From sequence record NC_107631.1: 50,078 nucleotides of DNA. The stretch is one strand, 5' to 3'. This stretch comes from a phage. The notes beneath the pieces were generated by a model. It did not search any database and was not told the DNA's origin. It worked only from the letters and a program-made list of their open reading frames with translations. The position numbers were made by a program, and so were the translations under genes. Positions 1 to 50,078 of the stretch are shown piece after piece (positions within the stretch are counted from its first letter, which is position 1; each line of letters opens with the position of its first letter).

Positions 1-409
1 AATCAAATTTAAATGCACTTCCGCAGAAAAAATCACAGGATTCGAAGTTAATAATCTGTACAAAGGTCGTGAGCACGACGACGGCACTCGCGAAGTAAAG
101 TTAAAATGCGGTAAGTATTTAAAACTTGAAAAGCATGATGAATTACATATTCACGGATCTGATGAAATCTTCTTCGCGAAGTTCACTGAGTTGAAAACAA
201 AGACGCTCAAGTGCACCGGACTTGACCATCGCAACCCGATGAAAAAATCATTCAAGGTTGGAAAGCGTTACCAGGTAGAAAGCGGTCGCGCTCTCGGTGC
301 TGTGGCTGGTTACATCTTTGATGAGGACGGTTGCCGCTGGACCTTATACAGATCCGATATTGGATTTGAGGTAGCTGACGGTACGAAGTTTGAAGGACTT
401 TACTCATGA
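1..409 (+). CDS. hypothetical protein, 5'-truncated at window edge
   Basis: Frame is open from position 2 to the stop at 407-409; internal repeats of K-x-K-C-T / F-E-V type; overlaps the next start (ATGA). Confidence 0.5.
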   Translation, partial: IKFKCTSAEKITGFEVNNLYKGREHDDGTREVKLKCGKYLKLEKHDELHIHGSDEIFFAKFTELKTKTLKCTGLDHRNPMKKSFKVGKRYQVESGRALGAVAGYIFDEDGCRWTLYRSDIGFEVADGTKFEGLYS

Positions 410-891
410 TAAATATAAGAGATGATTTTTTATATGTTGATGGAATTATTTATTATAAGAGTAACACTAGATTTAAAAACCTTGCTGGGAGAGAGGCTGG
501 AAAGTTAGATAGGCTGGGTTACTGTAGGTTTTATGATGGGTTTAGGATGGTTTATAGACATAGATATGTATGGACTATTTTTAACGGCCAGATACCTGAA
601 GGTATGGAAATAGACCACATAAACCATATACCAGGTGATGATAGAATTGAAAATTTAAGACTTGTAACTAGAGAAGGGAACACAACAAATAGAAGTCTAA
701 ATAAAAATAACACATCTGGCATGAATTGCATATACCCTATGAAATCAGGCTCTTACAGGGTAAGAGTTAGATTTAGGGGTAAGACTTACGGAAGGTGCGT
801 TGACACTGTTAGTGAGGCTATAGATTTAAGAGATTCAATACTCATTGATCTTGGTTTTCATGAGAATCACGGATCGAATAGCATTTTTTGA
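406..891 (+). CDS. HNH homing endonuclease (HNH plus AP2-like domain)
   Basis: IDHINHIPGDDRIENLRLVTREGN motif; tail resembles AP2 domain (YRVRVRFRGKTYGRCVDTVSEA); visibly AT-rich codon usage versus neighbours. Confidence 0.8.
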   Translation: MINIRDDFLYVDGIIYYKSNTRFKNLAGREAGKLDRLGYCRFYDGFRMVYRHRYVWTIFNGQIPEGMEIDHINHIPGDDRIENLRLVTREGNTTNRSLNKNNTSGMNCIYPMKSGSYRVRVRFRGKTYGRCVDTVSEAIDLRDSILIDLGFHENHGSNSIF

Positions 892-950: not shown

Positions 951-2519
951 ATGTTTAATATTAAGCCAAAACTGAATTACCAACAGATTATTGAGATCGC
1001 AAATAGCACTGGAGTTAATCCGGTGGCGATCGCAATTCGTGAAAACAGTTATGGGGATTCAGTTTCTTTTTGGCAAGATCCGATCGATATCAACAGCGGA
1101 AACGATAAGTTCCCTCTGATTTCGTTAGGTGGCGATAACCTGGTATTCGAATATGCAAAAGCAAAAGCTGAATCAGTCCAGTTCCCGGTTTCATCCGCGT
1201 ATGCTCATTTTATCGGTTGCATCTCAGCCGCGATGCTCGGGAAGTTTTGGGTGCAATATCATGGAGAAGAACAGCCGACAGCACTTTACATGGTAATCAG
1301 TCAGCCACCATCAACAGGTAAATCAGCGATTAACTCAGCGGCGATTACACCTATGCGTGCGGAGATTCAGCGACTGAATGAAGAGCGCAAAAAGGAACGT
1401 ATCCGTTTAACAAGTCAGCTACGTCAGGTCGAGAAGGAAATTAAAAACGATCCGAAGGGTAACACGACGGCGGCGCTGTACGAAGACAAGGAAAAACTGG
1501 AAGAAAAGATCAAGAAGATGGCTGATATTGTTTTTGCGGTATCAGATCCTACACCTGAAGGTCTTGCGAAGGTGGCGGCTGTTCAAGGTCACTTCTCCGT
1601 AATCTCTGATGAGGCAACAGCAATAAATACATTGCTGGGACTGACCTATGGCGGTTCTGATAAGAAATCAAACAGCGAGCTTATCCTTAAGGCGTGGGAT
1701 AAAAACCATATGGAGGTCGCGCGTTCAAATCAGGACAACAACTTATCTCTTTGCCCGGTCGGTTCGATCTGCGTCATTGCGCAGGATGAAACAATCAAGG
1801 GCATAATGGACGCAGGCCAGCGAGGTATCGGTGTATCTGAGCGTTTCCTATTGGTTCGCGAGGAACCGCTTTTAGGTACTCGTATTCTTTGCGATGAAAA
1901 TGGTGATGCGCTGTATAAGGAAGTCGATCGAGGGTTGGTGAGTAAATATTATCGACTCGTGCACAACATTATGAAAGAGGACAGCGTTGTTCTCTCTGTA
2001 AGCCGTAATGCTATGCGTGAATTGAACCTTGCGCGTCAGGCGATGGAGCCGGATTTCGCCGCAGGGGGTAAATACTCTCACTCAATGCTACGCGGTCATC
2101 TCGGCAAGTTCGATAAGCACGCCTTGCGTATTGCTTCAGTTCTCCACACAATCAAGAATTGGGAGGGTGAATCACCGAACCGTTCCAATCGTGAGATAGA
2201 TCTTGAAACAATGCAGGAAGCAATCATGATTTTTAATGAGCTTTCCAGAACTTATCTGTCGTCTGCCAGCGCCGCCGGGTATGCTGGTGATGAGGCTGAA
2301 TCTCGTAAGCTGATTGATGTTATCACTGAGATCGCAAAGAAGAACAAAGGTCGCGCACCTATTCATAGCATTGTTGCAAAGTGCCGTAACGTTACGCCGT
2401 TCAACGGTCAACAGAAAGTAGCTGAGCGAATCGACAGCCTGCTGATCACGCTCGAAGAGATGAACTACACTTGCCGCATTGATGATATTGTTTTCATCAA
2501 TCCTCGACTGATGGGTTAA
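951..2519 (+). CDS. putative replication-associated P-loop NTPase (DnaB-like Walker A)
   Basis: Start moved to Met22 of the track ORF, preceded by AAGGAG; ISQPPSTGKSAINSA resembles the DnaB RPSMGKTA Walker A; function is inferred only. Confidence 0.5.
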   Translation: MFNIKPKLNYQQIIEIANSTGVNPVAIAIRENSYGDSVSFWQDPIDINSGNDKFPLISLGGDNLVFEYAKAKAESVQFPVSSAYAHFIGCISAAMLGKFWVQYHGEEQPTALYMVISQPPSTGKSAINSAAITPMRAEIQRLNEERKKERIRLTSQLRQVEKEIKNDPKGNTTAALYEDKEKLEEKIKKMADIVFAVSDPTPEGLAKVAAVQGHFSVISDEATAINTLLGLTYGGSDKKSNSELILKAWDKNHMEVARSNQDNNLSLCPVGSICVIAQDETIKGIMDAGQRGIGVSERFLLVREEPLLGTRILCDENGDALYKEVDRGLVSKYYRLVHNIMKEDSVVLSVSRNAMRELNLARQAMEPDFAAGGKYSHSMLRGHLGKFDKHALRIASVLHTIKNWEGESPNRSNREIDLETMQEAIMIFNELSRTYLSSASAAGYAGDEAESRKLIDVITEIAKKNKGRAPIHSIVAKCRNVTPFNGQQKVAERIDSLLITLEEMNYTCRIDDIVFINPRLMG

Positions 2520-2523
2520 TGAT

Positions 2524-2931
2524 ATGCTTCTTCTTTTAGATCTGTTCAGGTTCTGCGAAGGTTACGACAAATACACTCGACAGCACATAGCGAAATTTAT
2601 ATACGCCCACAAGGAAAGTGAGCGATTTGCTAAGGCCGCTGGAATGACTCACCGTGAATTTACAAGTGCGCTATCTAAGGAGTTTTGCGCACGTTGCGTG
2701 ACTGAGGGTTATCTTGATTGCAAGGATGGGTTTTACTGGTGCAAGGGAAAGATTAAGCGCCCTGTAATGATGAAGCTGATGTGTATTGATGGCTACAACA
2801 ATCGGTATACGTGGGAAATGATGCACATTGGAGAGATGAGTGATGAAGATTTGTTTGGCGAACGTAGAAACATTGATAGATCGGAACGTCGAATTGTGCG
2901 CAAGGCTCCAGCTTACGAAAGAAGAATTTGA
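2524..2931 (+). CDS. hypothetical protein (Cys-rich, basic C-terminus)
   Basis: 135-aa ORF directly after the previous gene on the same strand; no recognisable motif. Confidence 0.5.
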   Translation: MLLLLDLFRFCEGYDKYTRQHIAKFIYAHKESERFAKAAGMTHREFTSALSKEFCARCVTEGYLDCKDGFYWCKGKIKRPVMMKLMCIDGYNNRYTWEMMHIGEMSDEDLFGERRNIDRSERRIVRKAPAYERRI

Positions 2932-4275: not shown

Positions 4276-4452
4276 TTAATCTATCGCAATAAATTCCAGA
4301 TAGCTACCGTTCAGAGGCGCTTGGATTGCTGAACATCGCCCGTCGTAAATCTCAAATAATCCCCCACCGAAATCATAACCAACACTATAGATCTGATTTA
4401 CGCGGAATGGAAGTGTTTGGGAGTCATTTCGGATGCACTTAACTAGCTTCAT
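4276..4452 (-). CDS. hypothetical small protein (about 58 aa), not in ORF track
   Basis: ATG 7 nt after AGAGG; served by a dyad-motif promoter; coordinates approximate. Confidence 0.4.
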   Translation of the reverse strand: MKLVKCIRNDSQTLPFRVNQIYSVGYDFGGGLFEIYDGRCSAIQAPLNGSYLEFIAID

Positions 4453-48193: not shown

Positions 48194-48424
48194 ATGGCAA
48201 TCAAACACCCTGGATTAAAGAAAGCAATCCAGCGCGCCAATGACGAGGGATTCATTGTCTACCGCACACATTACGGTCACATGGGTGGATTAAAAGAGCA
48301 TCATACAAAGGTTGAGCTTGTCGACCTTTGGGAAGATTACGATACATTCCAGTATATCGCCACGTCTGACGTAGAGGCGCAAGTGAAATACATCAACGAT
48401 ACAATTGATAGTTTTAGAGGGTGA
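48194..48424 (+). CDS. hypothetical early protein
   Basis: 76 aa; conserved CAACCAATCAGGAG RBS. Confidence 0.5.
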   Translation: MAIKHPGLKKAIQRANDEGFIVYRTHYGHMGGLKEHHTKVELVDLWEDYDTFQYIATSDVEAQVKYINDTIDSFRG

Positions 48425-48428
48425 TTAC

Positions 48429-48800
48429 ATGTTTAAACAATTCGTAGACCTTGACTTCTCAGCAAGCACAGCAATCCAGACTGACGAGAAAGAGAACGTA
48501 GCGATCGAGAACATTGCTCGCAAGATTTACAACAAGCAAGAGAAGGCAGTGAGAGCCGCTCTAAGCGCTTATTACGGTGTAAGTGATGCAATGGAGTGTG
48601 TTAACCGTGTAACGCGCGTGGTGGACCGTTCTGGCGCGTCTCGTTTCGTCGATGACGATACTGGCGAAACAATCATCCAGCTTAACAATCCATCCATGCG
48701 CACCGAGCTTGGCAATATTGCATTATGGGGCGTGGCTAACTACTCAATCACCGTGAACTCCTGCATTGCGGGTCGCGTCAAGGAGGCATTATATGAGTGA
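48429..48800 (+). CDS. hypothetical early protein
   Basis: Start moved to Met9 with AGAGGG RBS; 123 aa. Confidence 0.5.
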   Translation: MFKQFVDLDFSASTAIQTDEKENVAIENIARKIYNKQEKAVRAALSAYYGVSDAMECVNRVTRVVDRSGASRFVDDDTGETIIQLNNPSMRTELGNIALWGVANYSITVNSCIAGRVKEALYE

Positions 48801-48993
48801 TAATATTTACCGCGTAGTGGCGATCTCACGTAAGACACAGAAGAGAGCGATCGCTTACATGGGTAGTAGCGCCATTGAAGCTACGGACGCTTTCGAATTG
48901 CTAAAGAATAATGAAGGATTTATGAACACGTTCCGCGTTCGACTTGAGCGCCTCGAACCTGTTATCATTGATGAAGCGCGAAAGCTATCCTGA
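48793..48993 (+). CDS. hypothetical early protein
   Basis: Start moved to Met10 with AGGAGG RBS; overlaps the previous stop. Confidence 0.5.
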   Translation: MSDNIYRVVAISRKTQKRAIAYMGSSAIEATDAFELLKNNEGFMNTFRVRLERLEPVIIDEARKLS

Positions 48994-49010
48994 ATGGTTA
49001 AGGGGGAGTA

Positions 49011-49331
49011 ATGAACCACACTTACAAAATCACAACGAAGTCACCGAAGATTAACGGAAGCACGGTTGCGGCACTGAATAACGCGGCGGCAATTCACGAA
49101 AAAAATATCATGGAGCGCGTGAAGGCAGCGGTAGGTAGATTCTACGGGATCAATGCCGACATTGCCGACAGCAAGCGACTGTTCAAATACGTTCCAGGTC
49201 ATCCATATGGCAGGATGATTGATATCAAGCATGATAAAGAACTGGTTCGAATCGGATCGCTTAGCGTTGACGAGTTCGACCATAGCATCAACCTGGTTAC
49301 GGCATATCAAACATGGGACGGTAAAAAATGA
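49011..49331 (+). CDS. hypothetical early protein
   Basis: 106 aa; RBS AAGGGGGAG. Confidence 0.5.
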   Translation: MNHTYKITTKSPKINGSTVAALNNAAAIHEKNIMERVKAAVGRFYGINADIADSKRLFKYVPGHPYGRMIDIKHDKELVRIGSLSVDEFDHSINLVTAYQTWDGKK

Positions 49332-49471
49332 TTTATGTTCACACCTTTTATACAGGAAAGTTTAACAGCGTAAAAAATGTTCGCGTTTACGATAGTCACC
49401 AAAAAGCAATGATGCAGAGAGTAGTGCTAGGAGGAACAATCAAAGAGTGCAAAGTAATCTCTGAGTACTGA
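49328..49471 (+). CDS. hypothetical very small protein, not in ORF track
   Basis: ATG overlapping the previous stop (ATGA); coordinates approximate. Confidence 0.25.
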   Translation: MIYVHTFYTGKFNSVKNVRVYDSHQKAMMQRVVLGGTIKECKVISEY

Positions 49472-49515
49472 TAGCACAAATTGCTAAAGACACACACCGG
49501 GGAGTGAGTTATATT
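49471..49515 (+). promoter_or_regulatory. dyad-motif promoter
   Basis: ATAGCAC-AAA-TTGCTAA then TTATAT(T) 28-29 nt downstream inside inverted repeat GGGAGT..ACTCCC. Confidence 0.5.
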
Positions 49516-49548
49516 ACTCCCACACCAAACGAAACAAAGGAATCAAAA

Positions 49549-49773
49549 ATGAGCATTAAAGTTGAGAATATCATCAAGCACTTGAACGCAAAAGGTCGTG
49601 TAGTTATCAAAATGGATAAGTCTTCCGGTTTTATTTCAATGACGGTAACTAAGACCCGTAACGGTAATAACGTTATTGGCAGCACGCCAGGCTCGCACTT
49701 AGTAAATGCAACAGATGCGGATGTGCGCGCTACGCTTGAGGCTAACTCAATTTACATTAATTCATGGAGTTAA
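49549..49773 (+). CDS. hypothetical early protein
   Basis: Start moved to Met16 with AAAGGA RBS; 74 aa. Confidence 0.5.
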   Translation: MSIKVENIIKHLNAKGRVVIKMDKSSGFISMTVTKTRNGNNVIGSTPGSHLVNATDADVRATLEANSIYINSWS

Positions 49774-49777
49774 TTTA

Positions 49778-49990
49778 ATGGAACGGGATAATTTCTGGAC
49801 TCGTTATTTTGGCGCTCTTGATGCTGGTCTTAGTGCTGAATGGTGTATCAAGGTAGCGTATAAAGAAATAACGCTTGAAGAGGCTTTGGGTGATATGAAT
49901 ATGGACGAAGAAAGTGAGTTTGATCCTGATTTTGAATTACCAGAAGAACCAAAAAACGAAGATTTAGACGACGATTATATCCCGTGGTAA
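49778..49990 (+). CDS. small acidic protein with SSB-tail-like C-terminus
   Basis: Start moved to Met25 with GGAG RBS; C-terminal DEESEFDPDFELPEEPKNEDLDDDYIPW. Confidence 0.5.
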   Translation: MERDNFWTRYFGALDAGLSAEWCIKVAYKEITLEEALGDMNMDEESEFDPDFELPEEPKNEDLDDDYIPW

Positions 49991-50034
49991 ATAGCACGAT
50001 TTGTTAATATTGCCGTAAGGTCATTTGATAAAGT
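49991..50034 (+). promoter_or_regulatory. dyad-motif promoter (cassette family B)
   Basis: ATAGCAC-GAT-TTGTTAA then TGaTAAAGT 28 nt downstream inside inverted repeat; the whole cassette is near-identical to the one at 43803..43886. Confidence 0.55.
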
Positions 50035-50070
50035 GGCCTTATTCAAGATAACCAATCAGGAGTTAACACC

Positions 50071-50078
50071 ATGAAAAA
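50071..50078 (+). CDS. start of a gene truncated by the window end
   Basis: ATG AAA AA following the conserved AACCAATCAGGAG cassette. Confidence 0.4.

Follow-up and report, generated by a model that had tools for sequence, protein, structure and literature searches.

The closest described structural relative of the protein treated here is Gp54 of phage Bas11, which binds CapRelSJ46 and activates that toxin-antitoxin defence (Zhang et al., Nature 2024, PMC11578894). Gp54 was found to be a six-stranded barrel with one prominent beta1-beta2 loop, its nearest neighbour being the SH3 domain of RecD. The topology was called very rare, and activation of CapRelSJ46 is not seen even with close homologs of Gp54 (PMC11578894). 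Another described system is a stand-alone SH3 protein encoded beside the lysis cassette of Drexlerviridae, for which a role as lysis accessory has been proposed (KanT1 paper, PMC13164509). Also among the closest known structures are the SH3-like barrels of the SF1B helicases RecD, RecD2 and TraI, along with FeoA and the C-domains of DtxR/ScaR.

In the present study we analysed the gene found in the first 409 positions of a 50,078 nt stretch of phage DNA (NC_107631.1; the whole stretch is called the window below). The finding is largely ordinary, as the gene is already catalogued as a conserved hypothetical in T1-like phages, and the novelty is limited to the fold assignment and the domain logic of an uncharacterised core T1 gene.

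A complete early gene across the genome join

An earlier reading of this DNA, made from the letters alone (the sequence-only reading), reported a truncated first ORF at the window start, of which too little was present to assign a function, and suggested obtaining upstream sequence and running profile searches. The protein-coding ORF was borne out; in positions 1-409 frame 2 is open from base 2 to the TGA at 407-409, and there are orthologs in T1 and Eco_BIFF. The truncation, on the other hand, is an artefact of the point where the circular genome was opened. The in-window part of the gene is short of only 8 nt, and these (ATGAAAAA) are found at the opposite end of the window, at 50071-50078. 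The window end (…AGGAGTTAACACC ATGAAAAA) reads in frame into the window start (AATCAAATTTAAATGC…), and joining 50071-50078 to 1-409 gives an ORF of 417 nt and 138 aa, with the nearest in-frame stop on its 5' side at 50029. By sequence comparison the same join is uninterrupted in phage T1 and in Eco_BIFF, where CPTT1_073 and gp47 are likewise 417 nt and 138 aa long. The joined ORF is identical to T1 at 122 of 139 positions (138 residues and the stop) and to Eco_BIFF at 124 of 139, corresponding to about 88-89% identity, and both orthologs lie at the same position 5' of the DUF3987 gene. The first 3 kb of the window show 90-95% nucleotide identity to about 60 T1-like phages (Tunavirus, Drexlerviridae), and Eco_BIFF is collinear with the window across the whole 3 kb compared. 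With 50,078 bp the window has the length of a genome of this kind.

This makes the window a complete, circularly permuted T1-like genome opened eight bases into orf7, and the gene a complete early gene, the ortholog of T1 orf7 (CPTT1_073, AAP49992.1) in PHROG 2684. It looks cut because the circular genome was linearised inside it; given the 417-nt ORF and the T1 and Eco_BIFF orthologs of the same length, the gene is therefore not meaningfully truncated, and its entire length is available within the window. The profile search returned a full-length match to phrog_2684 (E 2.3e-51), in which residues 4-137 align with positions 1-126 of the 127-position profile. Members of the family are about 117-146 aa long, those of Tunavirus 138 aa, and the joined ORF agrees with this. 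Taken jointly, this gene identity and the two-barrel architecture described below are very probably correct. Residues are numbered on the 138-aa full protein unless stated; the structure model covers the 135-residue in-window part, to which 3 must be added for conversion. The parts of the gene are as follows.

50058-50062, plus strand: Shine-Dalgarno-like AGGAG, 8 nt 5' of the true start, also kept in T1 and Eco_BIFF
50071-50078, plus strand: first 8 nt of the gene (ATG AAA AA), continuing at window base 1 over the circular join
1-190, plus strand: remainder of the N-terminal domain (residues 3-66), a variable, predicted six-stranded beta-barrel
191-406, plus strand: C-terminal domain (residues 67-138), a highly conserved predicted beta-barrel with 21 invariant columns
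407-409, plus strand: stop codon TGA, overlapping the ATG of the HNH gene at 406-408

It should be noted that any feature cut by either window edge needs to be read again across the join 50071-50078/1. A promoter and terminator scan 5' of orf7 gave nothing beyond shuffle expectation, and Rfam over the whole window gave no match. An imperfect 7-bp hairpin, AAGGTCA-N10-TGGCCTT, is located at 50017-50040, about 30 nt 5' of the start of orf7. T1 and Eco_BIFF have almost the same hairpin, with one substitution in the 3' arm of the latter, and the terminator scan made no call for it.

Conserved and variable domains, predicted fold and internal motifs

PHROG 2684 is annotated as "unknown function". 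A search of 5.8 billion sequences returned 102 orf7-family proteins, nearly all of 114-146 aa, the long contigs among their sources being about 50 kb, and no Pfam domain was found among the 102. The exhaustive profile search of 1.84 billion representatives gave only 27 clusters, all of short phage proteins save one protein of 971 aa, and a fusion of the family to an informative domain was seen in none of them. By tblastn the C-terminal 72 residues were found in 823 phage records. The 40 listed of these are all 25-53 kb and come from phages of enterobacteria (and nominally Campylobacter), and not one carries a functional annotation, the gene being "hypothetical", of "unknown function" or unannotated. 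Two of the tblastn records were opened and belong to Drexlerviridae (Braunvirinae and Kyungwonvirus). NCBIfam, and a profile search of the PDB sequences, gave nothing with the orf7 protein.

Two members of the family search deserve a comment. P0103 (117 aa) is an exact head-to-tail duplicate of the last 58 residues of the C-barrel, probably an assembly artefact. P0123 (971 aa) gave five matches over profile positions 102-124, where the orf7 segment GAVAGYIFDEDGCRW looks like a YD repeat by eye, and we treat this match as motif-level similarity.

The two parts of the protein differ strongly in conservation. Mean pairwise identity is 0.39 for residues 1-66 against 0.75 for residues 67-138, and the 21 invariant columns of the family alignments fall in the latter. 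The N-part is unrelated in five aligned relatives and in Bas11 gp48 (121 aa), which is a homolog of window orf7 with an unrelated N-domain, and stand-alone versions of the C-part exist as well, such as the 75-aa P0120. Between the window and gp48 of Bas11, a phage of a different subfamily, the C-part is 59% identical, against 58% for the helicase, 63% for the primase and 62% for the large terminase TerL; the small early ORFs compared at 48411-49992 have no Bas11 counterpart. The C-barrel behaves like a core gene, as its identity between the window and Bas11 equals the level of helicase, primase and large terminase.

The AF2 model built on the family alignment (pLDDT 91.1, pTM 0.82) is all-beta. 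By DSSP its strands fall into two blocks of six, with no strand outside them, and both blocks have a long beta1-beta2 loop. The protein has a basic pI of 9.1 and lacks a catalytic motif. From this model orf7 is predicted with high confidence to consist of two tandem small six-stranded SH3-like barrels with the fold of Bas11 Gp54. Gp54 (PDB 9AXB) is the top structural match both of the full protein, over 57 residues at 14% identity, and of the N-domain alone, over 52 residues at 12%. As the full-length hit is longer and at a different identity, the C-barrel was probably used in it, so both halves are likely Gp54-like.

The sequence-only reading had also pointed to short internal repeats with conserved Cys positions. 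The motifs are present: there are three copies of [FL]-K-C-[TG] (6-9, 37-40 and 72-75) and three of F-[EK]-V (17-19, 87-89 and 125-127). As repeats they are not significant in a formal self-alignment, which is the outcome that the sequence-only reading had itself named as refuting them. The best score of a split local self-alignment was 25, with a shuffle mean of 25.1 (sd 4.4) and 143 of 300 shuffles at least as good, and a fixed 67/68 split was unremarkable (score 23, mean 23.8). The threefold occurrence of F[EK]V has a shuffle probability near 1e-4, which we discarded as evidence because the motif was picked after seeing the sequence. Aligning the N-half and C-half family alignments by hhalign gave 17 columns with P = 0.003 and a probability of 9.8%, which is suggestive but not significant, and the register is exactly the beta1/beta2 motif correspondence seen in the model. 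When DSSP is mapped onto the model, KFKCT and TLKCT form strand beta1 of the N-barrel and the C-barrel, respectively, and F14-E-V…Y20 and F84-K-V…Y90 (135-residue numbering) form the last part of the long loop where it enters beta2. The spacing from F to Y is six residues in each half, and C5 and C71 (same numbering) both belong to beta1. The third copy of each motif (LKCG, 37-40; FEV, 125-127) has no structural counterpart and is not kept by the family; these copies are due to chance or, for FEV, belong to the HNH-linked tail treated in the next section. The faint "repeats" are predicted with high confidence to correspond, in both barrels, to strand beta1 (hydrophobic-K-C-T) and to the segment ahead of beta2 (F-x-V-x-x-x-Y). 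What the earlier reading caught is, by the model, an architectural feature, namely two like barrels, although the motifs that hinted at it are statistically insignificant on their own; the first copies of the two motifs in each half are structurally equivalent in the model.

One may ask whether the resemblance between the halves is accidental in a protein rich in lysine, which would then be a single domain or two unrelated ones that arose without duplication. We consider this quite unlikely. A self-alignment indistinguishable from shuffles, an N-versus-C profile probability of only 9.8% and third motif copies that are unconserved and misplaced are what chance would give; against it, the AF2 blocks share both strand count and long beta1-beta2 loop, one and the same rare fold heads the structural matches of the N-barrel alone and of the full protein, and three independent profile comparisons, N-C, DUF7244-N and DUF7244-C (for DUF7244 see the last section), all choose one register. 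A cysteine-based metal-binding repeat protein of zinc-ribbon type might also be imagined from the earlier remark on conserved Cys, and three of the four Cys stand in a hydrophobic-K-C context. In the family alignment only C74 is invariant; C8 is mostly conserved, with V in several members, C39 and C113 vary, and the alignment has no conserved CxxC-type pair. The modelled Cys moreover lie in or next to beta strands or in barrel loops, not in knuckles. The family alignment excludes such a repeat, and we regard the metal-binding explanation as having next to no likelihood.

The HNH insertion and the neighbouring helicase gene

The genes downstream of orf7 that are referred to here are the following.

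406-891, plus strand: HNH_3 homing-type endonuclease gene, 161 aa (Pfam PF13392, E 2e-19)
951-2519, plus strand: DUF3987 ATPase/helicase gene (Pfam PF13148, E 2.7e-42; PHROG 2373 "DNA helicase")
2524-2931, plus strand: 135-aa conserved gene (PHROG 2794; orf10), closing the block orf7 - helicase - orf10
4276-4452, minus strand: DUF7244 gene, 58 aa (PF23896, SH3 clan; Pfam E 3.7e-26), beside the holin-endolysin-spanin cassette

Translational coupling of orf7 to an HNH endonuclease gene had been noted from the sequence, and both the coupling and the HNH family stand: the HNH ATG (406-408) and the orf7 TGA (407-409) overlap as ATGA, with GAAGGA upstream. It is not an ancestral functional link, as SH6 and most of the close relatives matched by the first 3 kb carry no HNH gene at the junction, where a spacer of 76 nt precedes the helicase gene; therefore the coupling is a property of the insertion and not a functional partnership. 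T1 carries a different HNH gene at the junction (179 aa, 40% identical to that of the window), the further types of metagenomic relatives are 39-42% identical to the window HNH, plus one at 71%, and the window allele is common only to Eco_BIFF (98%). At all HNH junctions seen there is an ATGA overlap on the orf7 stop, save in L007-L009 where the overlap is 37 nt. The occupied loci include the following.

Window: 406-891
L002: 2213-2752
L005: 3913-4131
L007: 5192-5689
L010: 2863-3345
L011: 2914-3354
L012: 451-933

The orf7/helicase junction is a recurrent landing site for divergent HNH_3 genes, a neat case of homing-site reuse, and HNH is an unrelated selfish mobile insertion using the orf7 stop for its translational coupling.

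The 3' tail of orf7 (window 350-409, residues ~118-138) co-varies with the HNH gene. The last ~20 residues of window orf7 (…LYRSDIGFEVADGTKFEGLYS) are unlike the family consensus (…REEVGFSIADGTTFEAKYL), and the …GLYS ending is common to Eco_BIFF. The orf7 alleles of the window, Eco_BIFF and three metagenomic relatives end …FEG(L/I)YS*, the stop reading TCATGA, and an overlapping HNH gene comes next in all five. The …FESKYL* allele of T1 is HNH-linked too, via TTATGA, and the HNH-less SH6 has …FEAKYL* with TAA. This co-variation suggests co-conversion of flanking coding sequence by homing, and the 3' end of orf7 has possibly been co-converted in this way.

In every complete context examined orf7 directly precedes the DUF3987 gene, save for HNH and/or one small ORF between them. 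This was seen in the window, T1, BIFF, SH6, Bas11, L006-L010, L012, L013 and L014, and it spans Tunavirinae, Tempevirinae, Braunvirinae and Kyungwonvirus records as well as metagenomic contigs. In Bas11 the intervening gene is one of 81 aa. A gene of ~130-135 aa lies 3' of the helicase gene in the window, T1, BIFF, SH6, Bas11 and L014; in the window its product (2524-2931) is 46% identical to Bas11 gp45, and in the T1 record it is annotated as HTH-containing. In loci of sufficient length the lysis cassette follows on the opposite strand. Toward the 5' side, orf7 is the last in a series of small early ORFs without assigned function.

Two observations concern annotation. Two starts are possible for the DUF3987 ORF: TTG 888, which overlaps the HNH stop and gives the 543-aa form annotated in Eco_BIFF, and ATG 951, which gives the 522-aa form of T1 and SH6. 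It is the 522-aa form that matches the HNH-less relatives. In the T1 record AY216660, CPTT1_073 (L002 1800-2216) carries an HHpred note, "RipR transcriptional regulator, 88%", which is word for word that of the HTH protein CPTT1_070. We rejected the similarity to RipR, an HTH regulator, as it conflicts with the all-beta model and duplicates the CPTT1_070 note; since the model is all-beta, the note is probably an annotation carry-over from CPTT1_070.

Proposed function and alternatives

We propose that orf7 would be a non-enzymatic binding or adaptor protein, in which the conserved C-barrel docks on a conserved partner, the DUF3987 ATPase/helicase being the best candidate, or on the DNA substrate of that enzyme, and in which the variable, exchangeable N-barrel would give a lineage-specific second contact. 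The helicase link is favoured because the gene order is invariant across subfamilies, the C-barrel is core-like and it has an invariant basic patch (K68, K70, K91, R92 and R120; K73, K84 and R99 are nearly invariant). As a whole, that is identity, two barrels and adaptor acting with the helicase, we put this forward tentatively as the best explanation, and the helicase-partner mechanism within it, which is inferred, is doubtful when taken by itself. Several points speak against the adaptor. Where early genes are packed as closely as in a phage operon, synteny is a weak argument for physical interaction, the annotated homologs (the 40 listed of 823) link the family to no function, and Gp54 as the closest structural relative is a non-essential accessory protein and not a replication factor. 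Further, the 81-aa gene separates the homolog from the helicase gene in Bas11, and the duplication signal is insignificant.

The main alternative, about as likely as the helicase link taken by itself, is a host-directed accessory role, though we would not bet on it. Orf7 would then serve in host takeover or anti-defence, or be an incidental defence trigger, in the manner of Gp54 and other small early phage barrels; one barrel would bind a host protein, and the variable N-barrel would track the diversity of hosts and their defences. It is in line with this that the top structural match of both the full protein and the N-domain is the CapRelSJ46 binder Gp54 of Bas11 (PMC11578894), that orf7 closes the series of small early ORFs mentioned above, and that its BFVD neighbours are small uncharacterised phage proteins. 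The high variability of the N-domain and its replacement in some lineages are what an arms race predicts. Such a role sits less well with a C-barrel that is core-conserved and near-universal in T1-like phages, unlike typical anti-defence genes; Gp54 gave only 19 hits in the 5.8-billion-sequence search, unlike orf7, Bas11 has gp54 along with a separate orf7 homolog, gp48, and neither PF25180 nor hhalign shows homology with the Gp54 family in sequence. If the two basic SH3/Sm/Tudor-like barrels instead bound nucleic acid independently of the helicase, orf7 could be a transcription or origin regulator or an ssDNA/RNA binder. A pI of 9.1, with the invariant and near-invariant K and R all in the C-barrel, agrees with that, as would the RipR note on CPTT1_073; this note is worded exactly as that of CPTT1_070 and incompatible with the all-beta model, and by sequence no DNA- or RNA-binding family was matched in Pfam, NCBIfam or PDB. 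We find this explanation unlikely, and retain the adaptor with the helicase as our preferred reading.

The outcome is a fold assignment, by model, for a function-less family in 823 phage records (tandem SH3-like, Gp54-type barrels), together with a domain logic of a conserved C-barrel and an exchangeable N-barrel in fixed gene order with the DUF3987 ATPase/helicase. It yields a concrete, testable hypothesis for a core T1 gene.

Comparison with DUF7244 and Gp54

The DUF7244 protein of the window carries VKC…FRVNQIY, which is the hydrophobic-K-C…F-x-V-x-x-x-Y signature of both orf7 halves. Orf7 residues 5-41 matched DUF7244 with 14.5 bits (E 0.038), below the gathering threshold of 27 bits; it was the only Pfam match of the protein, and it was lost when the halves were scanned alone. 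By hhalign DUF7244 aligned weakly with the N-half and the C-half (P 0.005-0.02), in the same register for both. DUF7244 is a single domain in the lysis module, whereas orf7 is in the early/replication operon. A lysis-accessory role for orf7, as proposed for DUF7244, was rejected because of the position of orf7 in the early operon. Ksap1, the KpAvs2 trigger, was considered too and rejected, being a 74-aa protein restricted to Dhillonvirus.

With Gp54 the orf7 model has in common the small six-stranded barrel, the prominent beta1-beta2 loop and the RecD SH3 domain as next-nearest neighbour, and both genes are found in the same early operon of Drexlerviridae. At the sequence level PF25180 ("Phage antiviral trigger protein Gp54"; gathering score 27 bits, Gp54 itself scoring 116 bits) gave no match to the full protein at E up to 1 or to the halves at E up to 10, and when a Gp54 family alignment was compared by hhalign with the N, C or full orf7 alignment the probability stayed below 1%. 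Gp54 is a single 66-aa barrel, non-essential and with only the 19 hits given above, whereas orf7 has two barrels of which one half is core-like. In Bas11 a single leftward early operon contains gp54 (66 aa) and, as a separate gene, the orf7 homolog gp48, whose product has 121 aa. Without sequence homology, and with both genes present in Bas11, orf7 therefore shares the Gp54 fold and not membership in the Gp54 family.

Further, we speculate that the Gp54-type barrel might be a recurrent building block of T1-like phages, with the orf7 tandem distantly related to both Gp54 and DUF7244 and acting as adaptor or loader for the DUF3987 ATPase. The C-barrel, because it is so conserved, would then be a natural target of CapRel-type sensors. 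We consider this wider scheme improbable in its entirety. As far as the model goes, the Gp54 fold would not be confined to one accessory protein, as it is predicted also in a core-like gene that lies upstream of the helicase gene in every complete context examined.
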